Part shown: positions 2,147 to 57,332 of the stretch, in pieces | How the letters are laid out: every line of letters begins with the position of its first letter | Position numbering within the stretch: the stretch's first letter is position 1 | Position numbers and translations under genes: made by a program | Source: Minisyncoccota bacterium | Lineage (GTDB): Bacteria > Patescibacteriota > Minisyncoccia > Phycocordibacterales > UBA9973 | Assembly (NCBI GenBank): GCA_041660345.1 | Contig: JBAZWP010000001.1 | Span: forward strand, 1 to 64,000 | Length of the DNA stretch: 64,000 nucleotides | Direction of reading: 5' to 3' | The notes under the pieces: generated by a model | The model's database searches: none | Seen by the model: only the letters and a program-made list of their open reading frames with translations | Told to the model about the DNA's origin: nothing

Positions 2147-2716
2147 GTGGTAAAATATTTGATGGAAAAATTTATTAAGATTCTTTCAAAAAGAAAAGGT
2201 ATAGTTCCTATTGTTGATTTAGGCATTTATTTGAAAGACTCGCATATTTTACCAGCCTCGAGAGCTTTAAAATCAGAATCGTTAAAAGAATTAGTTGCAA
2301 AAGGTGATGTACTCATATATGATAAGGAAACATATAAGCAACTTTCAATTGAAGACTTTAAGTTGCCTATTATTAAAGATAAAGATGTAGTTATAACAAC
2401 ACCACAAGTAAAACCAGAGACAGCTGTTGTATCAAATGATAACCAAATAATTGAAATGTTAAAGACGATGCAAGGCGATATAAATACTTTAAAGAATAAA
2501 CCTTCTGAAAAAGTGTATATAGAATCTGAAAATAGATTACAATATGATAAGAGAGAGTTTTCAGATATTAAAGATGAAATATTTATAGGTAGTAATAACG
2601 ATAAGTTTGAGTCTAATATAAATGAAGTTGTATTACCTGTTAAGCAAGAAGATTCAGGAAATATTAATGATGTTTTAAAAGCTTTAAAGAAAATAAGAAA
2701 TGACAATAATAGTTAA
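2147..2716 (+). CDS. hypothetical protein
   Basis: 189-aa ORF co-directional with neighbours. Confidence 0.4.
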   Translation: MVKYLMEKFIKILSKRKGIVPIVDLGIYLKDSHILPASRALKSESLKELVAKGDVLIYDKETYKQLSIEDFKLPIIKDKDVVITTPQVKPETAVVSNDNQIIEMLKTMQGDINTLKNKPSEKVYIESENRLQYDKREFSDIKDEIFIGSNNDKFESNINEVVLPVKQEDSGNINDVLKALKKIRNDNNS

Positions 2717-2792
2717 TACAAATAGTAATTTAGGTAGGGCTGATAAAAAAGAAGTTAAACAAAATATAGATATAAAGAAGAAGGAAAAAATT

Positions 2793-14625: not shown

Positions 14626-14654
14626 TTGACATTTAAAACTAAATAGTATATAAT
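14626..14654 (+). promoter_or_regulatory. consensus sigma70 promoter (TTGACA-17nt-TATAAT)
   Basis: TTGACA at 14626-14631, 17-nt spacer, TATAAT at 14649-14654, 8 nt upstream of the ATG at 14662. Confidence 0.6.
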
Positions 14655-19994: not shown

Positions 19995-20023
19995 AATATA
20001 TACTAAAAAATAATTTTTGTCAA
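19995..20023 (-). promoter_or_regulatory. consensus sigma70 promoter cassette (TTGACA-17-TATATT)
   Basis: Minus-strand TTGACA at 20018-20023 and TATATT at 19995-20000; member of a repeated intergenic element family. Confidence 0.55.
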
Positions 20024-22441: not shown

Positions 22442-22825
22442 TTACAACCTTATTAGTATATCGTTTATAATTTGATTCCAGCATTGATTCCATTCTATAT
22501 CACTTACATTAAGTGCTGCCTTAACTGGAGTATATACACGATCATCCTGATTAAAAACCTTAACTGTCTTTATTGCTCTAATCATAGCATACTTTGTATC
22601 TATTTTATCTATTTTATGATCACCTTTAATTAAAATTTCAAGAGGAGTTGGTGTTGTAGGTTTAATATAATGTCTTTTTATAAACTTCCTTACATTAGAA
22701 GGATCTGATTTAAGTTCATTTGCTATTTTAGAGTAACTATAACCTTTGTTAACTAGTTCTTGAACTTGATTTTTAAATAGCTTTTGAGGATAACCATTGA
22801 ATAGTATTTCATTCATATCTTCCAT
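22442..22825 (-). CDS. HTH protein sharing a C-terminal ALNVS domain with the 405-aa HTH-repeat protein
   Basis: N-terminal LVNKGYSYSKIANEL HTH-like module; C-terminus YTPVKAALNVSDIEWNQCWNQIINDILIRL paralogous to the C-terminus of 24347..25564. Confidence 0.4.
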   Translation of the reverse strand: MEDMNEILFNGYPQKLFKNQVQELVNKGYSYSKIANELKSDPSNVRKFIKRHYIKPTTPTPLEILIKGDHKIDKIDTKYAMIRAIKTVKVFNQDDRVYTPVKAALNVSDIEWNQCWNQIINDILIRL

Positions 22826-24346: not shown

Positions 24347-25564
24347 TTATATTTTATTAAATAGGTCACCGATTATAGCTTCCCAGTACATATCCCATTG
24401 GGCGTTTGATACATTAAGTGCAGCTCTGACAGGTATATATAACCCATGATTCTTATCGAGCACCTTAATTGATTTAATCGCCCTTAGTATAGCGTTTTTA
24501 ATTTGATCGCTATACTCAATTATATTATCAACCTTTGGCTCAACTTTAATTGGTTCAACCACCTTAATTGGTTCAACCTTAATTGGCTCAACCTTAATTG
24601 GCTCAACCTTAATTGGCTCAACCTTAATTGACTTTGGCGCAAATCGTCTTTTAGGTATATAGTTTATATTGTACTTTCTTATATAATCGCCTATTGTTGA
24701 TTGAGTACAATGAAAGTGCCTAGCTATTTTTTCTTGGCTAAGACCCTGGTTAACTAATTCAATCAATTCACCCTTGTCTATATTTAATACACCTCTTTGA
24801 TTAGTGTATTTAATGTTATGTTCCTTGATAAAAGTGCCTACGGTTGTAGCTGAAACGCGAAAATCGTTTGCTATGTCAGTTAGGTTATTACCCATCTTAA
24901 TTAAAAGCTCTATACGAGGTATATCACGTTCTGTAATTTTAGTGTGCTTATAATTTATATTATTGTCACGAATATACTTACGTATAGTTGAACTACTAAC
25001 ATCGAAGTATTTAGCTATATCATCTACACTAAAACCTTCATTAATGAGCTTGATAAGCTCACCATTATTTAAGTTATATGATATATTCTTTATAGGTATA
25101 CCATAATATTCAAGTATACTTTTAACTGCGGCGTGGCCTATTTTTTCAATCTTATTACCATGCTTTTCATCTAGGTACTTAGCAATCTCACTACATGTTT
25201 TATTTTGATTTACATATAATTCAATTGCTTCATCTTTTGAAATATACTTAATGAATCTGGGTATACTCTTTTGTTCCTTCATTAGTATACTTGTAATAAC
25301 AGCTGTAGACATCGAGTACTTCGTTGATGCAGCGTTAGTTCCAATTTTATCAATATCATCTAGTAATTGGTTATAACCAATGCACTCACGGATATTTGAA
25401 ATTTTAGACGTGTGTGGGATTTTATTGCTATTTATAAGAATTTTCCTCACATCAAAGTATGTTCTACCAAGCTTTTTTGCTATTTCATTAATATCCTTTG
25501 TTTCAGTTTCAAAAATTTCTACGATAGTTGGTTTTTTAGATTCAAATTTTACAGTTCTTACCAT
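24347..25564 (-). CDS. multi-HTH repeat protein with (PIKVE)n linker and C-terminal ALNVS domain
   Basis: Four ~50-aa internal repeats each containing an HTH-like module (xxSxxEIAKYL / DIAKYFDVSSSTIRKYI / DIANDFRVSATTVGTFI / KIARHFHCTQSTIGDYI); six tandem PIKVE pentapeptides; C-terminus paralogous to 22442..22825. Confidence 0.5.
   Translation of the reverse strand: MVRTVKFESKKPTIVEIFETETKDINEIAKKLGRTYFDVRKILINSNKIPHTSKISNIRECIGYNQLLDDIDKIGTNAASTKYSMSTAVITSILMKEQKSIPRFIKYISKDEAIELYVNQNKTCSEIAKYLDEKHGNKIEKIGHAAVKSILEYYGIPIKNISYNLNNGELIKLINEGFSVDDIAKYFDVSSSTIRKYIRDNNINYKHTKITERDIPRIELLIKMGNNLTDIANDFRVSATTVGTFIKEHNIKYTNQRGVLNIDKGELIELVNQGLSQEKIARHFHCTQSTIGDYIRKYNINYIPKRRFAPKSIKVEPIKVEPIKVEPIKVEPIKVVEPIKVEPKVDNIIEYSDQIKNAILRAIKSIKVLDKNHGLYIPVRAALNVSNAQWDMYWEAIIGDLFNKI
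24536..24632. repeat. 15-bp in-frame tandem repeat (~6 copies, unit tcaaccttaattggc)
   Basis: Direct reading of 24536-24632; encodes the (PIKVE)n tract of the HTH-repeat protein. Confidence 0.8.
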
Positions 25565-26512: not shown

Positions 26513-26541
26513 ATTATAAACTAAAAAAATTAAAATGTCAA
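26513..26541 (-). promoter_or_regulatory. consensus sigma70 promoter cassette (TTGACA-17-TATAAT)
   Basis: Minus-strand TTGACA 26536-26541, TATAAT 26513-26518. Confidence 0.6.
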
Positions 26542-26544
26542 GCT

Positions 26545-27084
26545 TTATTTTACAGCACCTATTGGTATTTCCTCAAATGGAACTAGTAAATCACCTAATT
26601 TTTTAAGTGCCTCAATAATCCATATTATTTTTGATGAATATGAAAAAGGCGCATCATAATCCCATAAATCGATTATATCATTATCATAGTAGTCTTGTTC
26701 TGTTTGAACATGATAGTTTTCTTCAACTTCTTCAGCGCTGATTTCTTTTATATCTGAAATTATTCTTATAGCTTCGTCTTTATCATATTCTAAATAATTT
26801 TTGTCATCTAATAGCTTACCGAAAATATAATCATAATTCGATTCACAAAATCCTTTGAATCTTTTTGATCTTATCATGGTAAGGTCAACTCTAAATATTG
26901 CATGACCTATATCACCATAAATGATAAGGTAACCACCTTGATATGTCACATAGTATGAATATGTAATTGTACCTTCCTTGTGACAATATATAGTGTTACT
27001 AGTTATCTCGGTTAGTATATGGTCCTTAAATGCGTTTTTAGCAAATCCTTGTATTCGCTCGAGGTTATCTTTATTTACTATCAT
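26545..27084 (-). CDS. hypothetical protein
   Basis: 179-aa ORF. Confidence 0.3.
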   Translation of the reverse strand: MIVNKDNLERIQGFAKNAFKDHILTEITSNTIYCHKEGTITYSYYVTYQGGYLIIYGDIGHAIFRVDLTMIRSKRFKGFCESNYDYIFGKLLDDKNYLEYDKDEAIRIISDIKEISAEEVEENYHVQTEQDYYDNDIIDLWDYDAPFSYSSKIIWIIEALKKLGDLLVPFEEIPIGAVK

Positions 27085-27617
27085 ACTACTTGTTTAGCCT
27101 TAACAACTTTTACAAAAGACGCATCATATTTTAATGCACTTTTTATTTTTTTAACGATTTCTTTTCTATCACCTTTATAATTGTCGCATCGTTCTTTTAA
27201 GCACAATTCTAATTGTTTAACAAGTTTTGTTTTGTCAGGTTTATGAAAATCAGGTCCACTATACCTAGTAAGCCTCCAAGGTGAACTATCCTCGTTACAT
27301 TTTAAATAGCAAGTTTGGCATTGTGGACATTGATAACTGTATAAAGCACAAAGAGCGCATGTATCACCACCTCTGTCTAAATACCAAAAGCCTGCTTTAT
27401 TTATTTTATTTTGATTCCATTTAATATAAGATAAGTATAACCCAATTAAATCAGTGTCCTCATCATATTCTACTTTTTCTACAAATGTGTACATACCACC
27501 TAATATTTTATCTGTTTGATGTAATACTTCATTATTTATACTGAGTATTATTTTAGTTATCTTAGGAAGAGTTAATTTTATCTTAATTTTAGTTATTTCT
27601 TCAAATAATGTTTCCAT
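27081..27617 (-). CDS. Cys-rich SYIKWxQN-family protein (paralog 1 of 4)
   Basis: LSYIKWNQNKINKAGFWYLDRGGDTCALC...C...C motif block shared with three other ORFs. Confidence 0.4.
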   Translation of the reverse strand: METLFEEITKIKIKLTLPKITKIILSINNEVLHQTDKILGGMYTFVEKVEYDEDTDLIGLYLSYIKWNQNKINKAGFWYLDRGGDTCALCALYSYQCPQCQTCYLKCNEDSSPWRLTRYSGPDFHKPDKTKLVKQLELCLKERCDNYKGDRKEIVKKIKSALKYDASFVKVVKAKQVV

Positions 27618-27627
27618 CCAGATATCC

Positions 27628-28128
27628 TTATATTACTAATTTTTCTAAAGTTTCTATATCTATATACCATGATCTATGTACTAAACATTCGTTAGGGTAT
27701 TTTAATTTTAATTGAATTCTCTTTTCATTTAAAACTTTAATTGCATGCTCTTGATTATCATAACCTTGCATAACAGCTATTATAACTTCATAACGCTTAT
27801 GATTAATATGATTGTAAAAATTAGTTAAGACCATATATTTAGGTGTTGCTATTTTATTATAATTATCATACTCTATATCTGGTTGTATTGATTGAAAATC
27901 AGATGATACTATTTCATCAACATCACCTGTTTTTAAATTCATAATGATATGGTATTCAGGTAGTGCTGCTTTTTTAAGGGCGTACTCACCTAAATTATCT
28001 GTTTCATATTCTTCATAATCTTCACAAAAATGAGATGCTATTAGTGATTTCGCTTTACCTTCAGAAGAAACTACCCCAACTATACGGTAATCCGAATAAC
28101 AACCTGATGTTAATATATATATTGTCAT
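27628..28128 (-). CDS. hypothetical protein
   Basis: 166-aa ORF. Confidence 0.3.
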   Translation of the reverse strand: MTIYILTSGCYSDYRIVGVVSSEGKAKSLIASHFCEDYEEYETDNLGEYALKKAALPEYHIIMNLKTGDVDEIVSSDFQSIQPDIEYDNYNKIATPKYMVLTNFYNHINHKRYEVIIAVMQGYDNQEHAIKVLNEKRIQLKLKYPNECLVHRSWYIDIETLEKLVI

Positions 28129-28433
28129 AAATTTATGCTAAACTTTATATTAATATACTTTAAACTCTGGTATAATTGAATATATATCTTACCGTCCTTA
28201 AATGTTATTGTACCTTTTTCTGTATCATAAGTATTTTGTTCTTTATACTTTTCCCAGTTTGCACGACTTGATTCAATAATCCCAGTTAGAACTAAAAATG
28301 TATATAAATCGTTTGGTTGTATAGTTACACTATCATCATTTTCTTCTACAAAAGTGATGTTTGTATATTGAATTTCGGGATCAATAGATATTAATAAATC
28401 TACTGCTTCTTCTTTAGTCATCATAAGCACCAC
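28125..28433 (-). CDS. hypothetical protein
   Basis: 102-aa ORF. Confidence 0.3.
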   Translation of the reverse strand: MVLMMTKEEAVDLLISIDPEIQYTNITFVEENDDSVTIQPNDLYTFLVLTGIIESSRANWEKYKEQNTYDTEKGTITFKDGKIYIQLYQSLKYINIKFSINL

Positions 28434-28771
28434 ACTCTAAAAAGCTCAAGCATTATAAACATATTAGCTAATGATCCATCATCTCTTAATTCTTTATCTT
28501 CTTTTATTACTTCGATATGTCTTTCTAACGATTCTTTATGTGCTTTATGTAGTGCATAACTAATATGCTGATCCCATGTAGCATAAAATGCATGCTCACC
28601 ATTAAATACACGAATTTCTTTACGGAATATTTGCATTATTAATGTAGCTTCATCATAAGATAAAAACCGCGTTCTTACCCATTCAGCTAAATGCATTCCA
28701 TATATTAAAAGCTGTGTGCCTTTTTTATAATCATCTATTTCTCTAGATGGCATTTCCCATAAATCACTCAT
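28421..28771 (-). CDS. hypothetical protein
   Basis: 116-aa ORF. Confidence 0.3.
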   Translation of the reverse strand: MSDLWEMPSREIDDYKKGTQLLIYGMHLAEWVRTRFLSYDEATLIMQIFRKEIRVFNGEHAFYATWDQHISYALHKAHKESLERHIEVIKEDKELRDDGSLANMFIMLELFRVWCL

Positions 28772-29037
28772 TTTAAACTCTCCTTAATGCGATTAAAAGC
28801 TTTTAATACTCTTTTCTGGTCTATATCCCAACCATCCTCTTTACTCCAAATTGTTTTACGACCATTCCATTTAAAGCACGCTTCATAATACATTTTATCT
28901 AATATATCACCACTAAGTGTATCAACCTCTATGGTTTGATATATAACTTGTGTTCTATAACCCAACACATGGTAATCAACTGTATATGGTTCGGGTTCAA
29001 TATCAAATATATCGATTGTTTCAAACAATACTTTCAT
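28768..29037 (-). CDS. hypothetical protein
   Basis: 89-aa ORF. Confidence 0.3.
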   Translation of the reverse strand: MKVLFETIDIFDIEPEPYTVDYHVLGYRTQVIYQTIEVDTLSGDILDKMYYEACFKWNGRKTIWSKEDGWDIDQKRVLKAFNRIKESLK

Positions 29038-37965: not shown

Positions 37966-38235
37966 TTATCCTTTTGTTATAACGTCACAATCCCATGCAA
38001 CCTTAGCAACAACTGTATATATTTTTTCGATACCTTCATATCGAATAGCAACATCTACTTTATGACCAGTGAATGGAAGAATAGATAAAGTTTCATGCTT
38101 TTTACGCATAAACATATTTATTGCAAATTTATTCCAATCATCATAATTTTCTAAATCTTCTGGAACAGATACTTTTTCCCATTCGGTACTTATAGTATTT
38201 GAATTTCCCACTATTCTAATTTCCATTTTTTTCAT
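37966..38235 (-). CDS. hypothetical protein
   Basis: 89-aa ORF. Confidence 0.3.
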   Translation of the reverse strand: MKKMEIRIVGNSNTISTEWEKVSVPEDLENYDDWNKFAINMFMRKKHETLSILPFTGHKVDVAIRYEGIEKIYTVVAKVAWDCDVITKG

Positions 38236-38504
38236 AACTCACGATCCTTATTTTGAATTGCAAAAGCAATATCACCTACACTTATACTCATTATTCGATG
38301 CAGCTTTGCACGAAGCAACCTGTTTTCTTCCTGAAGCTTTTTGTTTTCTTCAAAAAGGTGGTTTGCAAAACTGACAGTGTGTGCATGGTCATTTGATTGA
38401 CTTTTGTATATAAATTCCCAAGCTGCAGCACCAGGTAATACTTCTTCAAGTTTTGCTTTTTCTTCTTTAGTTAAATCCTTGACTGTCCCTTTTTTAATTT
38501 TCAT
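38232..38504 (-). CDS. hypothetical protein
   Basis: Start trimmed to the internal ATG (MKIKKGTV) behind GAGGGataat to remove overlap with the upstream gene. Confidence 0.3.
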   Translation of the reverse strand: MKIKKGTVKDLTKEEKAKLEEVLPGAAAWEFIYKSQSNDHAHTVSFANHLFEENKKLQEENRLLRAKLHRIMSISVGDIAFAIQNKDREL

Positions 38505-38505
38505 A

Positions 38506-39081
38506 TTATCCCTCGTTTTCAATAATGTTATATTTTTTACATGCTTCATCAAGTTCATCGTCTTCTTTGGTTCTACCATTAACTTCAATTATACGGTTAT
38601 CCCAATTAAGCCTAAAATCAGTAATGTAATCGATTGCAGCTTGTTTGTTATCGTTTTCAAAAGTGTGAATGAATCTTTGGTATGTAGCATATTTTTCGGG
38701 ATTACCTGCTACACAGATTGTATACTTTTTTCTTTTAATATCGTGGAAAAGGAATACTGGGACTTGATCTGTAATACACCAGTAAATCCCACCATGACCA
38801 TAAGGATCAACACCATGCTTTTCACATATTTTTTCGTATTCCCATTTTTTCATTGGTGTTTCTGGTTTATCAATATCTTTTCTAATGCAGCATGCTGGCT
38901 TTCTTTTAATATCGCAGCAGTCACATACATTAGTTGCATTATGATTATTTAAATGGCAACAAGGTGTATCTTGGATTAATTTACAGATATCACAGTTATA
39001 TTTAGTAACTGTTTTATCTATATCAGTTTTGATTTTATCGATGATTGCTAAGTTTTTCGGTTCTTTTTTAATAGCATCCAT
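38506..39081 (-). CDS. Cys-rich hypothetical protein
   Basis: 191-aa ORF with CDICK, CCHLNNHNATNVCDCCDIKRKPACC. Confidence 0.35.
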   Translation of the reverse strand: MDAIKKEPKNLAIIDKIKTDIDKTVTKYNCDICKLIQDTPCCHLNNHNATNVCDCCDIKRKPACCIRKDIDKPETPMKKWEYEKICEKHGVDPYGHGGIYWCITDQVPVFLFHDIKRKKYTICVAGNPEKYATYQRFIHTFENDNKQAAIDYITDFRLNWDNRIIEVNGRTKEDDELDEACKKYNIIENEG

Positions 39082-39096
39082 TGTTTTACCCTTTCA

Positions 39097-39555
39097 TTAG
39101 CAAATTTCAGAATCTAATCCCCACTTATCGCCTGTTCGATATATCACAACTCCACAAGTTCCACTTAAACCATGACCACTACCACCTAATACAGCCCATG
39201 CATTTGCAACTTCGCCGCATTCGCAAAGACCTAGTTTCTTTTGAATCTTGCTGTTACCACCTTCAGGTATGAATTTACGACCAAATTTGGTAGCCTCTGC
39301 ATCATCTAATAGCCAGCATAGTCCAAACTGACCATTTATGAGTTTTGCTGCCACTCGTCTTGTACCTTCATAGAGACCACAAAAATTAGCTTTACCACCA
39401 TTTTCAAGGATGACTGCACGAGTATCTGCAAGTCTTGCCGATAAATCAGACGCCCACTGAGTTAAAAACCCATCAGTATCACTTCTTTCAAATGATTCTT
39501 GGCTTCTGTTTCTTGATTGTTCTGCTTCTTGTCTGTATTCTTGTGCTGTTTTCAA
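39097..39555 (-). CDS. Gly/Cys-rich hypothetical protein in a locally GC-rich segment
   Basis: 152-aa ORF; GC content of 39100-39560 visibly higher than flanks; own consensus promoter and AGGAGATac RBS. Confidence 0.45.
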   Translation of the reverse strand: MKTAQEYRQEAEQSRNRSQESFERSDTDGFLTQWASDLSARLADTRAVILENGGKANFCGLYEGTRRVAAKLINGQFGLCWLLDDAEATKFGRKFIPEGGNSKIQKKLGLCECGEVANAWAVLGGSGHGLSGTCGVVIYRTGDKWGLDSEIC

Positions 39556-39581
39556 TTTGTATCTCCTTATTTATGAAACAC

Positions 39582-39610
39582 ATTATATACCAAAAAAAAT
39601 CATTTGTCAA
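39582..39610 (-). promoter_or_regulatory. consensus sigma70 promoter cassette (TTGACA-17-TATAAT)
   Basis: Minus-strand TTGACA 39605-39610, TATAAT 39582-39587. Confidence 0.6.
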
Positions 39611-39706
39611 GTCTTTTTTTAGCAATAAAAAAGGCTAGAACCTATCACTAATAACTGAGAATAAACCCAAATTACCGTGTGGTAAACTAGCCTTATAATT
39701 CTATAT

Positions 39707-40288
39707 TTATTTTGTAAAAGATGCTATAAGTATTGTCTCTAGGTCGTCAGCTTCATCTTCTACTACATATATTGAAATAAGCTTATCCATTGATGTATAG
39801 TATTCAGTTAAAAAAGTATTACCAGATTCAATTACACATCGTTCTAAATGGTATAAAGCCTCTTTTATACTCTTCTCATGCGAAGGCTGCATCTTAGATA
39901 TATTTCGATTTAAAAGTTTAGATGTTCTACCAGCCTCGAGAATCATCTTATTTTCATCATGGTTTTTATCCATTAGATATCTTCGTACTAAATTAATACA
40001 ATCAAGTGTTTCAGTATCTCTTTGCTTTTCATCCAAATACTTCTTAAATAAGTACTCCAAGGACTCTAAATTGAATTTCATAAGGGTTGGTTTGAGTAAT
40101 ACACCGGAAGCCCATACAGCACCTTTTAAACCAATCAGGCGACATATCTTGCTAATATCAATACTGACATTTTCCATCATTCTATTACTAAAGACGTCTT
40201 CAATTCTGTCATAATAGCTTGTTGTAGAGAAAGGCAATTCCTTTAAAGTTTTAAGGCAAATTTCATTTTCATATTTATTGTTTAGCAC
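39707..40288 (-). CDS. hypothetical protein
   Basis: 193-aa ORF. Confidence 0.3.
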   Translation of the reverse strand: MLNNKYENEICLKTLKELPFSTTSYYDRIEDVFSNRMMENVSIDISKICRLIGLKGAVWASGVLLKPTLMKFNLESLEYLFKKYLDEKQRDTETLDCINLVRRYLMDKNHDENKMILEAGRTSKLLNRNISKMQPSHEKSIKEALYHLERCVIESGNTFLTEYYTSMDKLISIYVVEDEADDLETILIASFTK

Positions 40289-40484
40289 TCTTTTTCTCCT
40301 TTTTTGAGATTTCTAATCCTGTTTCAACATCAATTACTTTACCTAGACATGGGCAAGGTAAAGTTATACCAGGTCCATTATAATTTCTTTTTAATACGCC
40401 CATACCATTACATTCTCTTTTAACGCACTGTGATTTAGGCATATGTTCAACTTCGTACCATTTACTTCTAATATATGCTTTCAT
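40275..40484 (-). CDS. Cys-containing small protein
   Basis: 69-aa ORF. Confidence 0.25.
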   Translation of the reverse strand: MKAYIRSKWYEVEHMPKSQCVKRECNGMGVLKRNYNGPGITLPCPCLGKVIDVETGLEISKKEKKSAKQ

Positions 40485-40510
40485 ATATTAAATATACACT
40501 TATTTAGATT

Positions 40511-40816
40511 TTAATTTAACTTTGCTTTAACTAATGATTGTCTAAAACTATCCTGTAAAACTTTACCACACCATAATCCTTTTTTTCGATTACTTACTTT
40601 ATGTGTTTTAGGATTAAGATATAAGTCTTCACCAGCTTTATACTTTAACCTTTTATCACAGTCTAATTCACAACTAGTAGCTTGATAAACTATACCTTCT
40701 TTTGTATAAAATCCGATCCACTTTTCATATATACCCATTTTACCTATTTTATTTTCAGGTAAATGTGGAATCATAATAGTATAATACAAAGCTGTTTTTG
40801 ATAATATATTACTCAT
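40511..40816 (-). CDS. hypothetical protein
   Basis: 101-aa ORF. Confidence 0.3.
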   Translation of the reverse strand: MSNILSKTALYYTIMIPHLPENKIGKMGIYEKWIGFYTKEGIVYQATSCELDCDKRLKYKAGEDLYLNPKTHKVSNRKKGLWCGKVLQDSFRQSLVKAKLN

Positions 40817-41262
40817 ATTTCTATTTCTATAGAGCGTCTTTCGACAATAGTTATTTCATATTTTGAAGGAAGAATTTCTAAAATGTCTTTTGCTCTTAAA
40901 TTATTATTTTTAAAGAGCTTATTAGCTAATCTTATTAAAGTAGCTTTGTCACATTTTTCAAATATTTCAGAAAAGTTATCTAGGAAATATTCACATTCAG
41001 GTTCATTAACTATAGACTCTAAGATAGGAACAGCGTCTAGTCCAAGCTGTAATAAATCAGACGACGCTTTAACAAGCCTGTCAGCATTACCTTTTTCCCT
41101 AAATTCTTTTATTTCGGGTATTCTTAGGATGGGTTCACTTTCTGTTATAAATTGAATACCTGAACGATGACCATAATAAATTGCATCTTTTTTAATAGCA
41201 TTCATTAAATCATTAGCTTTTTCTTCATTAGACTTAAATAAGCTTTTCAAAAATTTTAACAT
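40813..41262 (-). CDS. hypothetical protein
   Basis: 149-aa ORF. Confidence 0.3.
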   Translation of the reverse strand: MLKFLKSLFKSNEEKANDLMNAIKKDAIYYGHRSGIQFITESEPILRIPEIKEFREKGNADRLVKASSDLLQLGLDAVPILESIVNEPECEYFLDNFSEIFEKCDKATLIRLANKLFKNNNLRAKDILEILPSKYEITIVERRSIEIEI

Positions 41263-41280
41263 TATTTCTCCTCATCAAGT

Positions 41281-42159
41281 TTAAAACTTAGTTGACACCG
41301 TACCACCTATATACACACTTTTTAAATCTGTGTTAATAGTTGGTGAAATATATGTATCATGTAATAAACTTGTAAAGTTAATCAAATTAAATCCAATAGG
41401 TGTGATTGCTAAATAGACACCTTTATCATTAAAATCTTTAATAAATCCTTTAGATGCACCAATTCCTAATAATGATATTGATTCAGGTTGTAATACTTTA
41501 GCGACAAATTCAGGCCACGCTAATGTGACATCGAATATATTAACATAAATATTTGCAGAATTAGGAAAGGAAACGCCACCCATTAATGTAGGATTAAACA
41601 AGAGTAGATCAACGTTCTTTTGAACTTGCATATCCGTGATCTTAATGGGTAGCTTGTTTCCTTTATCATCTAATTCATATATTTCAGCTATAGTGTACTC
41701 AGCTGGCATATAAGGAAATCGACTATGCTTTGTAGTGTATATGTTTTCTCTAAACTTTTGATTTAAAGTATAATCAACATAACCTGTTGCAGCATCAGCA
41801 TACCCTTTTATATGAAAATCACTGAATGTTAATGAAGTTGGTGGGCACTTATTGTCTACACATTGACCTGATACATTTTGAGTTATAACTTGAGGCTTAC
41901 CATAATAAGTACTTTCAGCTTCGATATAGATTATCTTATCGATTGTTGCATTATACTTATCTGCAATATCTTGAATCTCTTTAGGTAATTTCCCTAATAA
42001 ATAAACAGGCTTATCTTTTACAATAGTATAAGTGCTTTCACCATATATAGGTTCAGGCTTATGGTCATAAAATATATAATAAACTAATCCAATATTCACT
42101 ACAACTGATAGTATAGTAAAACCTAACCAATATAAAAATGTATCACTTTTTATTTCCAT
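41281..42159 (-). CDS. N-terminally membrane-anchored hypothetical protein
   Basis: 292-aa ORF with TM helix WLGFTILSVVVNIGLVYYIF. Confidence 0.35.
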   Translation of the reverse strand: MEIKSDTFLYWLGFTILSVVVNIGLVYYIFYDHKPEPIYGESTYTIVKDKPVYLLGKLPKEIQDIADKYNATIDKIIYIEAESTYYGKPQVITQNVSGQCVDNKCPPTSLTFSDFHIKGYADAATGYVDYTLNQKFRENIYTTKHSRFPYMPAEYTIAEIYELDDKGNKLPIKITDMQVQKNVDLLLFNPTLMGGVSFPNSANIYVNIFDVTLAWPEFVAKVLQPESISLLGIGASKGFIKDFNDKGVYLAITPIGFNLINFTSLLHDTYISPTINTDLKSVYIGGTVSTKF

Positions 42160-42179
42160 ATATATGGTATTTTTAGCAA

Positions 42180-42398
42180 CTACTTAACCATTTTATTACT
42201 TATATCAGTAAATACACTAATCATTTCTTTTAATAAAACCTCTTGTCGATAATGTCTAACACACTCAAAGCATAATTGTTGCTTATCTTTATTATAGATA
42301 ATATCAAATTTATTCTTTAAGCATATCATACAACGATGATCACCACCTTGTGAAAATTCCCATTTCTCATTCCCTATCATAACAACATCATTAAACAT
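42180..42398 (-). CDS. Cys-containing small protein
   Basis: 72-aa ORF. Confidence 0.25.
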   Translation of the reverse strand: MFNDVVMIGNEKWEFSQGGDHRCMICLKNKFDIIYNKDKQQLCFECVRHYRQEVLLKEMISVFTDISNKMVK

Positions 42399-42399
42399 G

Positions 42400-42837
42400 T
42401 TAGCTCTTCTTACTTATTTGTTTTAAGTTTAGTTCTAGTTTATATAGTATACTATCGTGGTCACCTTTAATTTTAATAATAGCTTTCTTAAGGTCTTTTA
42501 GTAATGGTTTTTTATTATGATACTCGTACGCTGTATGCCAAGCACTACCATTATTACAATTATTTAATACACACTCATGACACTTATGAGAGTTATTACT
42601 TCCACTATAATGAAATGAACATAGTGGACATGTGCTATCTCTACAACCTAATTCCCAACTATCATTATCTATACATTCATCACTAGGATTATTTTGAAGC
42701 CACTTTATATAACTAATAATAAGTGCTATATCACCATCTTTTTTATTATGATACTTATATGTGTAATGAAGTAATTTATCGTATACGATTGGGTATTTAT
42801 CTGAAAGTTCTTCTATTCTTTTTATAAATTCATTCAT
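42400..42837 (-). CDS. Cys-rich SYIKWxQN-family protein (paralog 3 of 4)
   Basis: ISYIKWLQNNP...STCPLCSFH motif; tandem with paralog 4. Confidence 0.4.
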   Translation of the reverse strand: MNEFIKRIEELSDKYPIVYDKLLHYTYKYHNKKDGDIALIISYIKWLQNNPSDECIDNDSWELGCRDSTCPLCSFHYSGSNNSHKCHECVLNNCNNGSAWHTAYEYHNKKPLLKDLKKAIIKIKGDHDSILYKLELNLKQISKKS

Positions 42838-42839
42838 AA

Positions 42840-43307
42840 TTAATCCTTTACTAATTTCTTTAATATTTTTTCTGTCTTATTGATAAGCGCACGATGCTTT
42901 ATAGGTTTAATTTTACAAATAAACTCTTCTAATTTTTTAATCAAAACTCTTTTGTTATTATTATATTGTATTTCTGTCCAATGATTTAATTTATTACCAG
43001 TTTTAAAGTCTGTTTCAGTACAACAGCTAACTAAAGGGCAACTATTACATCTATAACTGATTTTAGAAAAAGAATTACCGTGAACAGCGCATAATGGGCA
43101 GCTGCGTTCATTACAACCAAGCGTCCATGTTCCACCACCTAAAAGGTTTATACTTCTTTTATATTTATTTTGTAACCATTTTACATAGCTTAAAATAAGT
43201 GCAGTGTCTTTATCTTTAAGATCGCTATATATATAATCTATTAAGTAACCTTCGTCTAAACGATACTTTTTTGAAAGCAACTTAATCTTAGTTATAAATT
43301 CATTCAT
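42840..43307 (-). CDS. Cys-rich SYIKWxQN-family protein (paralog 4 of 4)
   Basis: LSYVKWLQNKYK...RSCPLCAVHG motif. Confidence 0.4.
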   Translation of the reverse strand: MNEFITKIKLLSKKYRLDEGYLIDYIYSDLKDKDTALILSYVKWLQNKYKRSINLLGGGTWTLGCNERSCPLCAVHGNSFSKISYRCNSCPLVSCCTETDFKTGNKLNHWTEIQYNNNKRVLIKKLEEFICKIKPIKHRALINKTEKILKKLVKD

Positions 43308-43308
43308 T

Positions 43309-43563
43309 TTATTTTTCCTCGAATGCGGATAGTACTATATCTGTTCTAGATACTACCACATATTTTTTTTGAATACCATCCACTTCAATTAATACATGAT
43401 ATTCTTCACCAGCTTCTAAATCGCCTGAGTAATGGTTTTGTACCCAATCTTCTATAGCTTTATAGATATAAACATCAAAAGGTGATTCAACTTCAATATT
43501 GTGCCAGCTATCCCAGCTGTCTTCTACTTCCCAATCGATACCTATTTTAATTTGTTTATTCAT
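43309..43563 (-). CDS. hypothetical protein
   Basis: 84-aa ORF. Confidence 0.3.
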   Translation of the reverse strand: MNKQIKIGIDWEVEDSWDSWHNIEVESPFDVYIYKAIEDWVQNHYSGDLEAGEEYHVLIEVDGIQKKYVVVSRTDIVLSAFEEK

Positions 43564-43564
43564 T

Positions 43565-43813
43565 TTACACGCTTATATACGAATAATACCACGCAACATA
43601 ACCTAATCCAACTAAAATAAAACCAAATACTGCAACACATGTTAGTATATCTATAAATTCCATAGTAAATTTAACCTTACCCTCTTTTACATCATCACAA
43701 ATTACACATATACCAAAGCATATAAACATTAAGAAAAACCCAAGTGGATTTTGAAGTGTAAAACAAAATGCTAACCCACCAAAAAAAGCCGCATTACCTA
43801 CTCTATCAACCAT
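43565..43813 (-). CDS. small two-TM membrane protein (holin-like topology)
   Basis: 82-aa ORF with two hydrophobic helices. Confidence 0.3.
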   Translation of the reverse strand: MVDRVGNAAFFGGLAFCFTLQNPLGFFLMFICFGICVICDDVKEGKVKFTMEFIDILTCVAVFGFILVGLGYVAWYYSYISV

Positions 43814-44001
43814 AAATTCGCCCTCATTTTATTTTTTACATCTTCTATTATTAAATTACGTGCTTCATATAATGTTAATGTTATAGGATATACTATATCA
43901 AACGCACACCAATTAATGCAAAATGAATATGTAATACCATTAATATTATGGTAGCTTATACCACACCAGTCTAAATGGCATCCTATACATTTATCACTCA
44001 T
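43798..44001 (-). CDS. Cys/Trp-rich small protein
   Basis: 67-aa ORF. Confidence 0.25.
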   Translation of the reverse strand: MSDKCIGCHLDWCGISYHNINGITYSFCINWCAFDIVYPITLTLYEARNLIIEDVKNKMRANLWLIE

Positions 44002-44471
44002 CTCTTTTTCCTTTCCATCATTTTTACCACTTCATCAGGGACTATATCTTTAAGTGAACCACCGAAGTGAAATATTTCCTTAGCTGCAGTTGAACTAATA
44101 TAAGAGTATGCTGGATCTGTCATTATAAATATTGTTTCAATATCTTTATCTAGTTTTTTATTTATAAAAGACATGGTTGATTCAAATTCAAAATCAGCTA
44201 TAGAGCGCATGCCACGAATTAATATTGTAGCATTATGCTTTTTTGCAAGGTTAACTAAAAGCTCGTCTGATATTACAACTTCTATATAAGGCATACACCT
44301 TTTAATTATATCTACCCTTTCTTCAGGAGAGAAAAAGCATTTTTTACTAATGTTTTGAGCAACTGCTATAATAAGTTTATCGCATATTCTCAATCCACGT
44401 TTGATAATTTCAATATGACCATATGTTAATGGGTCAAATGAGCCAGCGTATATTGCTATTTTTTCAGACAT
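43998..44471 (-). CDS. coaD: phosphopantetheine adenylyltransferase
   Basis: IAIYAGSFDPLTYGHIEII matches the CoaD (H/T)xGH nucleotidyltransferase motif; ATILIRGMRSIADFEFE aligns with E. coli CoaD ATVLIRGLRAVADFEYE; ISSTAAKEI matches ISSSLVKEV. Confidence 0.85.
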   Translation of the reverse strand: MSEKIAIYAGSFDPLTYGHIEIIKRGLRICDKLIIAVAQNISKKCFFSPEERVDIIKRCMPYIEVVISDELLVNLAKKHNATILIRGMRSIADFEFESTMSFINKKLDKDIETIFIMTDPAYSYISSTAAKEIFHFGGSLKDIVPDEVVKMMERKKR

Positions 44472-47968: not shown

Positions 47969-49219
47969 TTATGTTCCATGTTCCCAATTATTTAAATAAT
48001 GCTCTTGCTCTTCAGTTAACTCGTCTATATCAATTTCCATAGCATCTAATTTAAGTTTAGCTATTTCTTTATCTAATTCAATAGGCATGCGATAAACCTT
48101 TTTCATTAGTGTGTGGTGATTATTAACTAAATAGATAGCTGCCATTACTTGATTTGCAAACGACATATCCATAACCGCAGATGGATGACCCTCAGCAGAT
48201 GCTAAATTAATAAGTCGACCCTCTCCTAATATATTAATTTTAATACCTGTTTTTAAAGTATATTCAACATTATTATCACGAATTACTCTTTTAAATTTAG
48301 TCATCTTTTCAAGAGCTTCAAGATTTAACTCAACATTAAAGTGACCACTATTTGCTACCATAGCACCATTTTTCATATTAGAAAACTCACCCATATCTAT
48401 TACATTAATATTGCCGGTAACTGTGCAGAAGAAGTCGCCAATTCTAGAAGCTTCTCTTATTGTCATTACTTCAAACCCATCCATAACAGCTTCTAATGCC
48501 TTAATAGGATCAATTTCAGTAATAATAACACGAGCACCTAAACCTTTAGCTCTCATAGCGATACCTTTACCGCACCAACCATAACCACAAACAACAAATA
48601 TGGAACCAGCTAATAATCTGTTAGTTGCTCTTATAATACCGTCGATTGTACTTTGACCTGTGCCGTATCGATTATCAAAAAGATGTTTAGTATCTGCGTC
48701 ATTAACCGCTATTACTGGATATTTTAACGCATCTTCTTCTTCCATTGCACGTAATCTAATAACCCCAGTAGTTGTTTCTTCAGTACCACCTAGAACTTTA
48801 CTTAAATCAAAATCCTTATGTAATGTTGTTAATAAGTCAGCGCCATCATCCATAGTAATATGTGGTTCACTTTCTAATGCATCAAATATATGTCTATAAT
48901 AGATATCTGAATTTTCACCTCTTATAGCATAAACGGGTATTTCCATATCTCGAACAATGGAAGCTGCAACATCGTCCTGAGTTGATAATGGATTAGATGC
49001 ACATAATACTACATTAGCACCAGCGATCTTTAGTGTTTCAACAAGATTAGCAGTTTCAGTTGTAACATGCATGCAAGCTGCAATATTAATATCCTTAAGT
49101 GGTTTATAAGCACCATATCTTCCTTTAAGCAGATTTAATACCGGCATATCTTGTGCTGCCCATTGAATTCTTAGTCTACCTTTATCTGCGATATGAATAT
49201 CTTTTATATCACATTTCAT
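47969..49219 (-). CDS. ahcY: S-adenosyl-L-homocysteine hydrolase
   Basis: 416 aa; [12 protein letters not shown]...MPVL N-terminus and NAD-binding [10 protein letters not shown] Rossmann motif typical of AdoHcyase; 4-nt overlap with metK. Confidence 0.85.
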
Positions 49220-50385
49220 AATCCAGCTTCCCTTCTTATTAATTGTACTTTATCATCCTTTTCCCATGTAAATTCTAATTCAGTTCGTCCAAAATGACCA
49301 TAATTACTTGTAAGACTATAAATAGGTCTTAGTAAATCTAATGTCTGAATAATACCAGCTGGTTTTAAGTTAAATAAACCTTTTATAATAGCTATTATTC
49401 TACTTTCTTCAATTTTACTTGTACCAAATGTATTAACATTAACTGAAATAGGTTCTGGGTATCCTATAGCGTATGATAGTTGTACTTCACATTCACTTGC
49501 TAATTTTGCCATTACAATATTCTTAGCAATATAACGAGCCATGTAGCTTGCAGACCTATCTACCTTTGATGGATCTTTACCACTAAATGCACCTCCACCA
49601 TGTCTACCGCTTCCACCATAAGTATCAACAATGATTTTTCGACCTGTTAAACCAGTATCACCATGAGGACCACCTATTTCAAATTTACCTGTCGGGTTAA
49701 TAAAGTACTTAGTATTTTCTAATAGCTTACTTGGTATTACTTTTTTAATTACATGTTCTATAACGCCTTCTTTTAATGTTTCATACTTAACATCTGGTGT
49801 ATGCTGCGTACTTAAAACTATTGTATCGATATATACAGGTTTACTATTAATATATTTGAATGTTACTTGTGATTTACCGTCTGGTCTAATGAAGTATAAG
49901 TCTTTATTTTTTCTAATTTTTGTAAGTTGTTTGGTTAAAAGGTGTGCATAATAAATCGGTGCAGGCATATATACATCTGTCTCATTACAGGCGTAACCAA
50001 ACATCATGCCTTGATCACCAGCACCCTGTTCTTTATATAAACCATCTCCTTCTGTTACACCCTGACTAATATCATCGGATTGTTTGTCTAAAGTAACTAT
50101 AACTCCGCATGATTTATAATCAAACCCTGTATCAGGATCGTCATAACCAATATCTTTAATTGTATCTCTAACTATTTTTTGAATATCTAATTGTGCTCTT
50201 GAAGTTATTTCACCTGCTACTACAACTAATCCTGTTGTTACAAGTGTTTCACATCCAACACGCGATTTAATATCTACCTTTAAACATTCATCTAAAATAG
50301 TGTCAGATATTTTATCGCAAATCTTATCTGGGTGTCCTTCGGTAACGGACTCACTAGTAAATAAAAAATCTTTACCTTTTTTCAT
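49216..50385 (-). CDS. metK: S-adenosylmethionine synthetase
   Basis: [20 protein letters not shown] signature, [16 protein letters not shown] and DTYGG motifs. Confidence 0.9.
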
Positions 50386-50913: not shown

Positions 50914-51895
50914 TTGCTTTAGTTGGTTTTGGTTTAGACTTCGGTCTCTTCTTCTGTTTTCTGCCCCTAGTATTAAAGTTTTCAGTTACATACATCTCTG
51001 AATCACTCACTACACCCTTGAAAAATTCACCAATTGGGTCTTCACCACCACGCTCAACTATTCTCGGGTCTAATTTATGGTATGTTCTTACTTTCTTATA
51101 TTTATTTTGATGCTTAGGTTGTACTGTATGGTTTCTAACAGGGTATGGGTTACCCTTCATATCAAATAGTGTCCAACCACCTCTTGTATTTTCGTTATTA
51201 GTTTGTGATTCAGGTTCTTCTTCTATATTTTTATACTTATCAATAAGGTCAATACACTTATCGCCCCAATTATCAGGTGGTTCATCTAAAACTAATTTTT
51301 TACGCTGAATTCTTTTTAAGGTCTTAATGTAATTTCGATTACCATATTTATCTAATAACCATGTCTTCCAAAATGCGTACCATACTTTAAATTCATTTAG
51401 GTAATCATCTTTTGAAATTATTCGCATATCACCACGAAGACTTCTTTCAAAATTTACCTTATAGTTAGCTGTTAAATGAATTAGTTGCATTAATTTATCT
51501 TCGCGTTCTCTTATATCTTTTAAAACACTATCAGGAACAGCACTACAATGCTTTTCTAAATAATTTATATTATAATTAGCTATCTCTATAGCTATAAATA
51601 TATCTATTTCAGACATATCTGTAGGGTCTACATCATCTAAGTATGAATGTTTAAGTTTGTAGCGCTCCATAGCATTATCATCAATATATAATACGACAGA
51701 TTTAGCTACATTATTTGCATATTGTTTGGCGTATTCTTTTAAACCATTTTTAAATTTACGAGTATCTTCTTTAGAAAGACCACCTGACTTTTTAATTGCA
51801 TCTAATGGTGTTAAAATTTCCCCGTTACTTTTTGTACTACACGCAATTTTAGTACATAATTCTGCATCTAATTTTTTAAAACTTTTATAGCTCAT
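50855..51895 (-). CDS. hypothetical protein with basic C-terminal tail
   Basis: 346-aa ORF ending in RGRKQKKRPKSKPKPTK. Confidence 0.35.
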   Translation of the reverse strand: MSYKSFKKLDAELCTKIACSTKSNGEILTPLDAIKKSGGLSKEDTRKFKNGLKEYAKQYANNVAKSVVLYIDDNAMERYKLKHSYLDDVDPTDMSEIDIFIAIEIANYNINYLEKHCSAVPDSVLKDIREREDKLMQLIHLTANYKVNFERSLRGDMRIISKDDYLNEFKVWYAFWKTWLLDKYGNRNYIKTLKRIQRKKLVLDEPPDNWGDKCIDLIDKYKNIEEEPESQTNNENTRGGWTLFDMKGNPYPVRNHTVQPKHQNKYKKVRTYHKLDPRIVERGGEDPIGEFFKGVVSDSEMYVTENFNTRGRKQKKRPKSKPKPTKAIGKERDMSINSVINRNKNE

Positions 51896-53055
51896 ATTTC
51901 TTGATATACAAAATTTTTATTTTGAAAGTTAGTCATTTCTACTTTATTATTTGAATAATTAAAGAAATCTGGATTAATTGGTATTTTACCACCACCGCCA
52001 GGCGCATCTATAACAAATGATGGTATAGCATAACCACTTGTATGACCACGTAAACCTTTTATAATATCGATACCATCCTGAACTTTAGTCCTAAAGTGTG
52101 CCGATCCCGTAATGGGATCACATTGATAGATGTAATAAGGTCTTACGCGTCTTATTAAAAGCTTATGCATTAATGATTTCATTGTTTCTATATCGTTATT
52201 TATACCTTTTAATAGTACAGTTTGGCTACCCAATACTATCCCAGCATTAGCTAGCATATCACAAGCATTCTTATTCTCAATTGTGCATTCATCTGGGTGT
52301 GTAAAATGAACCGACATATAAACAGGATGATACTTTGAAATCATTTTAACAAGTGTTGGCGTGATTCTTTGAGGTAAAACAACAGGTATCTTAGTTCCTA
52401 TGCGAATTATCTCAATATGTGGTATATTTCTTAAACTTTTTAACAGATACTCCAAATGTTCATTGGAAAGTGTTAATGGATCACCACCTGAAAGTATCAC
52501 ATCTCGAATCTGGGGCGTTTTCCTTATGTAGTTGATAGATTCGTCCCAATTCGCTATATTAATCGTCTGGTGGTTACCTACAGCTCGACTGCGTGTACAA
52601 AAACGACAATATGATGAGCATATACCAGTCGTTAAGAATAACGCACGGTCTGGATACCTATGTACAATTCCTTCACAAGGTGAAGTTAAATCCTCTGATA
52701 ATGGGTCGTCTGACTCATTATTTCCTTGTATGAACTCATTACAAGTGGGTATCATCGTAGACCTTAGTTTATTATCATATATCAGTGACATATAATAAGG
52801 CGTTACAGCAAAAGGTAGGATATATTTACTATTTAAAAAGGCGGATTCTTCGTTATGTGATAGTCTTGTAATCCTTTTTAACTTTTCAAGTGTGGTAATT
52901 CTATTTTTAAATTGCCACTTCCAGTCGTTCCATTCTCTAAGTGATATATCTGAGTAAAATTGTTTTTTAAAATTGTAAGTTTTGGTATTTATACTTGGAG
53001 GTTTCTCATCAACCTCACCTTTAATAAGTGATTCAGCACATTCAGCAACTTCCAT
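51892..53055 (-). CDS. lysine 2,3-aminomutase-like radical SAM enzyme
   Basis: CSSYCRFCTRS (CxxxCxxC) radical-SAM cluster motif plus ILSGGDPL motif typical of the KamA/EpmB family. Confidence 0.8.
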   Translation of the reverse strand: MEVAECAESLIKGEVDEKPPSINTKTYNFKKQFYSDISLREWNDWKWQFKNRITTLEKLKRITRLSHNEESAFLNSKYILPFAVTPYYMSLIYDNKLRSTMIPTCNEFIQGNNESDDPLSEDLTSPCEGIVHRYPDRALFLTTGICSSYCRFCTRSRAVGNHQTINIANWDESINYIRKTPQIRDVILSGGDPLTLSNEHLEYLLKSLRNIPHIEIIRIGTKIPVVLPQRITPTLVKMISKYHPVYMSVHFTHPDECTIENKNACDMLANAGIVLGSQTVLLKGINNDIETMKSLMHKLLIRRVRPYYIYQCDPITGSAHFRTKVQDGIDIIKGLRGHTSGYAIPSFVIDAPGGGGKIPINPDFFNYSNNKVEMTNFQNKNFVYQEI

Positions 53056-54443: not shown

Positions 54444-54707
54444 TTACTCCATCTTAGGTAGTATATAATACCATAAGTTTGATTGATGTAAATCGTGGCC
54501 AGGTTGTTCTATATAACTCATTTCACCCATTAAATTAACTATGTAACCTTTAGCAATATGCCATCGTTTATCAGCAGTGAATCTACCATTATACACATCT
54601 TGATAATTTATAAAAGTACTTGTAACGTCTTTTATTTCAAAAAACCATACTGCACAGTCATCATCGCCATTTGGTTTTATAATTGCAAGATTTAATAATT
54701 CAACCAT
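54444..54707 (-). CDS. hypothetical protein (paralog of 57090..57332)
   Basis: LLNLxxxKPNxDDxCAVWF...TADKRW shared motif. Confidence 0.35.
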   Translation of the reverse strand: MVELLNLAIIKPNGDDDCAVWFFEIKDVTSTFINYQDVYNGRFTADKRWHIAKGYIVNLMGEMSYIEQPGHDLHQSNLWYYILPKME

Positions 54708-56822: not shown

Positions 56823-57103
56823 ATAACTCCTAAAACTTTTTGTATTTCTTTTAACTTATCTCTTTGACCATTTGCATATGCTGTTACTGCTATTAGTTCT
56901 AAAGATCTTAAAAATTCTTGCTCTACAAGTGGGCTATTAAATAAATCAGCACTTAATAAATTAAGCTTTGTATTATCTTCTAAATTAACTGTTATATGAA
57001 ATTCATTACCAGCATGTGACGCACTAGGTCTATAACCTACATCACATCTACATATGCTCTTAATTGTATTGTAAAATTCTATAATATCGCTATCTCTTAT
57101 CAT
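56819..57103 (-). CDS. hypothetical protein
   Basis: 94-aa ORF. Confidence 0.3.
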   Translation of the reverse strand: MIRDSDIIEFYNTIKSICRCDVGYRPSASHAGNEFHITVNLEDNTKLNLLSADLFNSPLVEQEFLRSLELIAVTAYANGQRDKLKEIQKVLGVI

Positions 57104-57332
57104 TTGTTACTCCTATATTAGGTAATATTACATAAAACAAATATGGTTCATTATTAACATATCTACCTATTTGAATTAATTCAAAACCCATCATAATAAT
57201 CCATCTTTTATCAGCAGTAACATCCCATTTTGTTAATCCCTCTAAAACAGTATTATCACTATAAGGAGGATAAAACCAAACAGCACATATGTCTTCATTA
57301 TTTGGTTTTGTATTTGATAAATTTAAAAGCAT
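57090..57332 (-). CDS. hypothetical protein (paralog of 54444..54707)
   Basis: MLLNLSNTKPNNEDICAVWF...TADKRW. Confidence 0.35.
   Translation of the reverse strand: MLLNLSNTKPNNEDICAVWFYPPYSDNTVLEGLTKWDVTADKRWIIMMGFELIQIGRYVNNEPYLFYVILPNIGVTNDKR

Follow-up and report, generated by a model that had tools for sequence, protein, structure and literature searches.

Introduction

WhiB-like (Wbl) proteins (PF02467), found in actinobacteria and actinophages, are small, helical, stand-alone proteins that hold a metal cluster through Cys residues and bind a host protein. ZAS domains (RsrA, PF13490) and the C4 fingers of DksA/TraR (PF01258) are also helical, need Cys-bound zinc and modulate RNA polymerase. 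Small phage proteins that bind Zn most commonly do so through two CxxC knuckles. High-potential iron-sulfur proteins (HiPIPs), which carry electrons in the periplasm, have a non-helical fold. In this study, we compared with these systems a family of four Cys-rich paralogs, here named p27, p34, p42a and p42b, that is encoded in the first 64,000 nucleotides (hereafter the window) of contig JBAZWP010000001.1 of GenBank assembly GCA_041660345.1. We find that the family is new and belongs to a well-known class of phage accessory proteins, small, Cys-rich and metal-binding. By analogy, it can be likened to metal-knotted modulators of the zinc-ribbon, WhiB-like and ZAS kinds, but it is a member of none of these.

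The comparison with WhiB-like proteins concerns the kind of mechanism that may be at work, and it draws on general knowledge of those proteins. None of the 34 family members that we scanned matches PF02467, and the Cys spacing differs from the C-xn-C-x2-C-x5-C of WhiB-like proteins. Similarly, the family differs from ZAS domains and DksA/TraR: it matches neither their models nor their folds, and it lacks both the H-x3-C-x2-C motif and the coiled-coil plus C4 architecture.

Four paralogs with five conserved cysteines

An earlier note on this DNA, made by a model from the letters and a list of open reading frames (ORFs), had described four related ORFs, two of them in tandem. All four are present, on the minus strand (Table 1), and p42b and p42a do lie head-to-tail with a 2-nt spacer. 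In BLASTP comparisons, p27 and p34 score 98 bits against each other, p42a and p42b score 85 bits, and every cross pair scores 34-44 bits, with cross-pair E-values of 4e-5 to 3e-7 in an all-vs-all comparison of 231 window ORFs. The four-paralog family is the largest in the window by this comparison, all other families having at most two members. A hidden Markov model (HMM) of the four sequences, run against 478 six-frame ORFs of at least 40 aa, recovered no fifth copy (runner-up E 0.08).

Alignment of the four paralogs with MAFFT gave 25 invariant columns, and S-Y-x-K-W-x-Q-N, W-x-L, C-x-L-C, C-x-x-C-x-L, a later W and K..L..L are invariant. The residue following W-x-L is D in p27 and G in the other three. 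In the alignment, the conservation of SY(I/V)KWxQN, WxL(G/D), CxLC, CxxC, the later W and K..L..L is therefore real. The similarity extends beyond the spacing of Cys to conserved flanking residues, the lack of which had been named beforehand as what would refute the family. Taken with the pairwise scores, the alignment indicates that the four ORFs are true homologs and a genuine paralog family. It likewise bears out the observation that the C-terminal halves are conserved within pairs.

The number of positionally conserved Cys had been overestimated. Each paralog has seven or eight Cys in total, yet five rather than "about eight" are conserved, both among the four paralogs and in the wider family. 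Four of the five are in invariant register; from one pair to the other, the position of the fifth moves by one residue. The conserved positions are C87, C90, C100, C103 and C107 in p27; C76, C79, C88, C91 and C95 in p34, which also carries the invariant W56; C70, C73, C86, C89 and C94 in p42a; and C70, C73, C87, C90 and C95 in p42b. The remaining Cys are pair-specific or unique, and the extra C97 of p27 generates the spacing C97-x2-C100-x2-C103-x3-C107. The invariant signature C-x2-C...C-x2-C(...C) looks like a metal site, and the zinc-binding half of the earlier idea is plausible. All four window paralogs are basic (isoelectric point [pI] 8.1-9.5).

A rare family from metagenomic, mostly phage, contigs

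The note had proposed building an alignment and an HMM and searching phage databases with them, and these searches revealed relatives that are rare, all metagenomic, and mostly in phage contexts where these were examined. HMMER, run exhaustively over 1.84 billion cluster representatives (E <= 1e-3), returned 32 further proteins, of which about 31 are distant relatives and, again, all metagenomic. One match, P0008, was rejected as a repeat-protein false positive without the Cys motif. We refer to the alignment of 34 family sequences, whose identity to p34 is mostly 23-33%, as A2; an HMM built from A2 scores the four window proteins at E 1e-30 to 1e-33.

In p34 numbering, W56, C76, C79, C88, C91 and C95 are invariant in A2, L78 and L123 are nearly invariant, and the consensus reads ...LSxxKWxxN...WSLGxxxxTCxLC...CxxCPL...C...SxW...DKxxLxxAL. 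Also conserved are SPW, DKxPLxxAL and aromatic residues around the Cys region. What varies is the gap between the Cys pairs, from about 8 to 25 residues, and the gap before the fifth Cys, from 3 to about 20. The resulting signature, W with C-x2-C...C-x2-C...C, SxxKWxxN, WxLG, (S)xW and (D/N)KxxLxxxL, was found in 4/4 window proteins. Family proteins are about 110-180 aa in size, and family-wide pI ranges from 4.7 to 9.8, a spread that argues against generic nucleic-acid binding as the shared role. Some members depart from the single-domain arrangement: P0035 carries the domain in tandem triplication; P0007, P0012 and P0016 have extra N-terminal zinc ribbons; and in P0022 the family domain is followed by a C-terminal Mre11/SbcD-like metallophosphoesterase.

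None of the four paralogs has an above-cut-off match in Pfam-A, PHROGs v4, NCBIfam or PADLOC, the best curated match being Fer2_3 at 16.8 bits versus a cut-off of 27 (E 0.0068), and no Pfam or PHROG model is common to more than one of the 34 members scanned. With the four-sequence alignment as query, a word-indexed search across 5.8 billion proteins found no protein other than the four themselves; with A2 as query, it found nine. Among 50,697 GenBank phages there was no tblastn match for p34, P0014 or P0034, nor any megablast match for the 16-kb span that holds the four genes. Motif scans (SYIKWxQ, SLWKWEQ) found no relative in 185,579 species genomes, scans of IMG/VR and JGI metagenomes found one 188-kb contig only, and four other viral scans found no family member. 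The members that we looked up are metagenomic singletons or near-singletons without a functional name, and a full-text literature search found no description of such a family. From these searches, we conclude that this is an orphan, previously unannotated family, known so far only from metagenomic, mostly phage, contigs.

Most of the relatives whose contexts we examined lie on phage contigs. One has a GpA-type terminase nearby, another has a small terminase and portal, and a third has pRha, Bro-N and rIIB; P0005 lies on the 188-kb IMG/VR contig IMGVR_UViG_3300014204_000114. The remaining contexts consist of arrays of tiny, unannotated, co-directional ORFs, and no neighbour recurs among the loci examined. 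Each of these loci, with 8-10 kb fetched per side, holds a single copy, so that the copy number in the window, which had been singled out as notable, does stand out. On the P0005 contig, the genes immediately upstream of P0005 are two minus-strand ORFs (383 aa and 132 aa; L005 8227-9777) that, judged by eye from their translations, resemble an IS200/IS605-type TnpB/TnpA pair.

Predicted fold

Structure prediction, another of the checks that had been proposed, gave a confident AlphaFold2 model of p34 when A2 was supplied (predicted local distance difference test [pLDDT] 91.2, predicted template modelling score [pTM] 0.87); with the four-paralog alignment alone, the model was unusable (pLDDT 52). 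The model has helices at residues 4-11, 18-34, 41-58, 77-85, 117-132 and 138-153, and a beta bridge, 61/67, that corresponds to the WSLG hairpin. The conserved core runs from the end of helix 3, which SYIKWEQN closes, through the WSLG hairpin, the start of the CALC helix, CRGC, C95 and SAW, to the start of helix 5, which NDLVTQL opens. C76-x2-C79 sits at the N-terminus of helix 4 (77-85), and C88-x2-C91, C95 and the Trp of SAW lie in the loops that follow. The predicted fold, that of a small cytoplasmic protein, is thus a bundle of helices into which a compact Cys-rich knot is inserted after helix 3 and before helix 5.

Fold comparison with known structures gave no match to the p34 model and no superposition on a zinc ribbon or treble clef. 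Profile searches against PDB sequences returned non-significant matches only, to HiPIP (3h31, E 0.096), the TRIM54 B-box (E 0.1) and the WDFY3 FYVE domain (E 0.06). These sub-threshold matches are split evenly between Fe-S protein and Zn fingers.

Origin of the copies

In a neighbour-joining (NJ) tree of A2, p27 and p34 group with P0007, and p42a and p42b group with P0005, P0006 and P0011; p42b is nearer to P0006 than to p42a. This grouping with members from outside the window indicates two old sub-lineages, each present twice, rather than a recent burst. The DNA of the tandem pair is strongly diverged, which indicates that the duplication of p42a and p42b is old. P0006 and P0011 carry the same locus-tag prefix as the window paralogs on other contigs, as WC783_04285 (11.5-kb contig) and WC783_02910 (17.9-kb contig), which brings the members in the deposited bin to at least six. 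Of the nine sequences in that part of the tree, six come from this one bin. The tree and locus tags together identify a lineage-specific expansion in one huge-phage bin.

We considered segmental duplication and rejected it: the genes that flank one copy are not paralogs of those that flank another, which indicates that single genes, not segments, were duplicated. The ORF at 33816-34154 was also considered as a family copy and gave no match. Directly downstream of the tandem pair, a minus-strand ORF of 72 aa (42180-42398) reads KWEFSQGGDHRCMIC...CFEC; it is locally like WSLGxxGDTCxLC...CxxC and ranked fifth in both HMM scans (E ~0.08). We did not accept it as a fifth, truncated copy (hhalign aligned 17 columns at a probability of 8.5%), and it could be a degenerate relic or a coincidence.

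Gene setting and promoters

The four genes abut co-directional neighbours, at distances from a 4-nt overlap to a 10-nt gap, and all have an AAGGA or GAGGA Shine-Dalgarno-like motif about 8-16 nt upstream. The motif of p27 is AAGGA, about 8-12 nt upstream, and this gene overlaps its downstream neighbour by 4 nt. p34 overlaps each of its neighbours by 4 nt. Upstream of p42a the motif is AAGGA, and upstream of p42b it is GAGGA.

The window contains four perfect matches to TTGACA-N17-TATAAT, versus 0.08 expected, and the extended spacer TTTTTTTAGTATATAAT is common to the three on the minus strand. Their over-representation and shared spacer suggest that the minus-strand block is probably transcribed by a host-type RNA polymerase, and the sites resemble a class of phage promoters that a host sigma70-type polymerase recognizes. 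No terminator-like site was found on the minus strand between the promoter at 37089-37117 and p34. We infer that this promoter probably drives the co-directional array that includes p34. The location of the genes in arrays of small co-directional genes near consensus sigma70 promoters is the one feature that would point, indirectly, to a putative role in host takeover.

Table 1. Positions of the four paralogs, the p34 core and the sigma70-type promoters in the window.
Feature	Position	Strand	Remarks
p27	27081-27617	-	178 aa; sub-lineage A; from ORF list and alignment
p34	34151-34621	-	156 aa; sub-lineage A; protein modelled by AlphaFold2
p34 conserved core, aa 52-123	34253-34468	-	from A2 conservation and secondary structure of the model
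p42a	42400-42837	-	145 aa; sub-lineage B; downstream partner in tandem pair
p42b	42840-43307	-	155 aa; sub-lineage B; upstream partner in tandem pair
Perfect sigma70-type promoter	14626-14654	+	
Perfect sigma70-type promoter	26513-26541	-	spacer TTTTTTTAGTATATAAT
Perfect sigma70-type promoter	37089-37117	-	spacer TTTTTTTAGTATATAAT
Perfect sigma70-type promoter	39582-39610	-	spacer TTTTTTTAGTATATAAT
Promoter variant	19995-20023	-	

The contig and other features of the window

The contig (64,167 bp) was deposited as 'MAG: Candidatus Paceibacterota bacterium', and the paralogs are annotated in it as WC783_00255, _00310, _00400 and _00405. The window is about 30% G+C, with no tRNA and no Rfam family in it. 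A plus-strand block carries a 907-aa tail sheath, whose nearest GenBank relatives belong to phages of 300-500 kb (Tunturiibacter phage Tunturi_5, an uncultured 485-kb phage and Bacillus phage G), and from about 18 kb a long minus-strand block of small genes follows. Whatever its bin label, the contig is phage-like. The earlier description of a Cys-rich paralog family in a phage thus holds, both in the homology and in the character of the contig. Locus tags in the bin reach at least WC783_04285, and the bin may represent either a huge phage in fragments or a candidate phyla radiation (CPR) bin with phage contigs in it.

Several other genes are of interest in their own right. A minus-strand gene (29819-32233) encodes an 804-aa protein with a shoulder domain of the major vault protein (MVP; PF11978, 4e-30), a vault repeat and Band_7, and it adjoins a gene for a 406-aa SPFH/Band-7 protein (32297-33517, minus strand; phrog_11908). 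To our knowledge, MVP-like proteins are unusual in phages. The one paper that a text search on this vault/SPFH pairing found reports putative vault proteins in Borg elements. The plus-strand block with the tail sheath also encodes a 361-aa protein (2700-3785) that strongly matches Volactin (PF25216, 2e-69), an actin-family protein. On the minus strand, genes for an S-adenosylhomocysteine hydrolase and an S-adenosylmethionine (SAM) synthetase are adjacent (47969-50385 and 51892-53055), and a radical-SAM protein with a lysine-2,3-aminomutase C-terminal domain is encoded nearby. Judged by their annotations, these genes together form a phage-encoded SAM-cycle module. A cytidylyltransferase-like gene lies at 43998-44471.

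Two or more CxxC motifs are present in 15/131 non-overlapping ORFs, mostly within 34-44 kb (33816-44001, minus strand). Examples are 34924-35544, 35549-36049, 37748-37960, 38506-39081 (13 Cys) and 42180-42398. By HMM, these CxxC-rich ORFs are unrelated to the five-Cys family, and they have no Pfam or PHROG match. There are also two further paralog pairs on the minus strand: a protein with several helix-turn-helix (HTH) motifs and a shorter relative (24347-25564 and 22442-22825, E 1e-11), and two small ORFs (57090-57332 and 54444-54707, E 1e-8).

Discussion

The reading that we favor, although we put it at somewhat less than an even chance, is that the four paralogs are metal-held, stand-alone accessory proteins of a huge phage that bind a host or phage macromolecule, with Zn as the likeliest metal. 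According to this model, the conserved Cys would hold a metal that locks the fold, most likely one Zn(II) on the two CxxC pairs, and the fifth Cys would serve as an alternative ligand or as a functional thiol. The proteins would be transcribed by the host RNA polymerase from sigma70 promoters, within long arrays of small genes, and would act by binding a macromolecule of host or phage. All copies would share the conserved knot as their core, and specificity would be diversified by the N- and C-terminal helices, which vary and are conserved only within each sub-lineage. Different specificities of the terminal helices would be a reason to keep several diverged copies. Each of the two old sub-lineages has been retained and duplicated in the huge-phage lineage.

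The family resembles generic C4 zinc-knuckle and zinc-ribbon modules. The two-CxxC pattern that marks zinc ribbons and treble clefs in sequence is found in all members of A2. In common with the WDFY3 FYVE domain (6w9n) and the TRIM54 B-box (3q1d), both matched below threshold, the family has two CxxC pairs separated by a short variable loop, preceded by a W/hairpin, with the first knuckle at the N-terminus of a helix. Several points weigh against the favored model. A Zn(Cys)4 site needs only four of the five invariant Cys; the model libraries that we scanned gave no match to a known anti-defence or takeover family; and conserved polar residues near the knot (the K of KW, the N of xxN and the D/N-K before helix 5) may just as well belong to an active site. 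Furthermore, we identified no promoter for p42a/p42b or for p27, and early timing of expression is read from the promoter consensus alone.

One rival explanation is that the five Cys ligate a [4Fe-4S] or [2Fe-2S] cluster, making the family a small redox-active or redox-sensing phage factor with a logic like that of the WhiB-like proteins of actinophages. We consider this unlikely, although it is the most credible of the alternatives. It would account for the fifth invariant Cys, which exceeds the needs of a Zn site, and for the ferredoxin-like spacing around C97 of p27. The best PDB profile match, although non-significant, is a HiPIP, aligned over TCxxC...CxxCxL, and there are sub-threshold Pfam matches to Fer2_3, CIAPIN1 (E 0.026, one member) and FhuF_C. 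The likeness to HiPIP 3h31 includes TCxxCxxY...CxxCxL...C followed by an aromatic residue, and conserved aromatics surround the Cys region in the family too. However, the HiPIP match covers 25 residues and is not accompanied by a fold match, no Fe-S family (HiPIP, ferredoxin or CIAPIN1-like) gave a significant model or fold match, and every match in this direction is below significance, with FYVE and B-box Zn fingers scoring equally. Moreover, a pair of CxxC knuckles is the most usual way for small phage proteins to bind Zn. Lower in our ranking, as a rather improbable alternative, is a sequence- or structure-specific nucleic-acid binder, such as a regulator of middle or late genes or a protein that binds DNA ends, in which the zinc knot would contact DNA or RNA. 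The basic pI of the window copies, the zinc-ribbon fusions P0007, P0012 and P0016 and the phosphoesterase fusion P0022 are in its favor; yet pI falls as low as 4.7 in the family, no HTH, HNH or known DNA-binding zinc-finger model is matched, and A2 has no invariant His or Asn between the CxxC pairs for an HNH-type (beta-beta-alpha-metal) nuclease site. The P0022 fusion also provided a Rosetta-stone lead, since a phosphoesterase is encoded in the window 1.4 kb from p34, but the two phosphoesterases are unrelated (E 0.29, different best PHROG matches), and we therefore dropped the lead.

It is less probable still that these proteins form a new, phage-restricted metalloprotein fold, with either an Fe-S cluster or Zn and a reactive thiol, that binds a host factor in a redox-responsive manner and is present in at least six copies in a CPR-binned huge phage. 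If this were true, and if the binning reflects the host, the family would be a novel takeover module tied to phages of an almost unstudied host group. We give slightly less credence to a catalytic role, in which the domain would be a small enzyme or a subunit of one, for instance a transferase or hydrolase that depends on a thiol, and the fifth Cys by the metal would make up the catalytic site with the conserved K, N and D/N-K. That polar residues are conserved besides the Cys and the hydrophobic core, that the fifth Cys is invariant, and that one relative directly follows and abuts a large glycosyltransferase gene would fit such a role. However, the neighbourhood is not conserved across relatives, and the protein is small, mostly helical and unlike any enzyme family or fold. 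Finally, in DNA of about 30% G+C where 15 of 131 ORFs hold at least two CxxC motifs, the resemblance might have been a chance or low-complexity product of AT-rich, Cys-spaced ORFs, or the ORFs might not be real genes. This explanation is already refuted and has a negligible probability: pairwise scores reach 98 bits, distant metagenomic homologs keep the motifs, the AlphaFold2 model is confident, and the genes have Shine-Dalgarno-like motifs and operon-like packing.

Altogether, this study delimits a clean new family from phage "dark matter", with about 35-40 diverged sequences, a sharp motif and a confident predicted fold that has no solved relative. On present evidence the family is a domain of unknown function, and its value is that of a well-delimited target rather than a mechanistic surprise. 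A domain model for the family is currently missing from annotation pipelines. If its metal and partner were identified, the family would represent a new class of small metal-dependent phage effectors.

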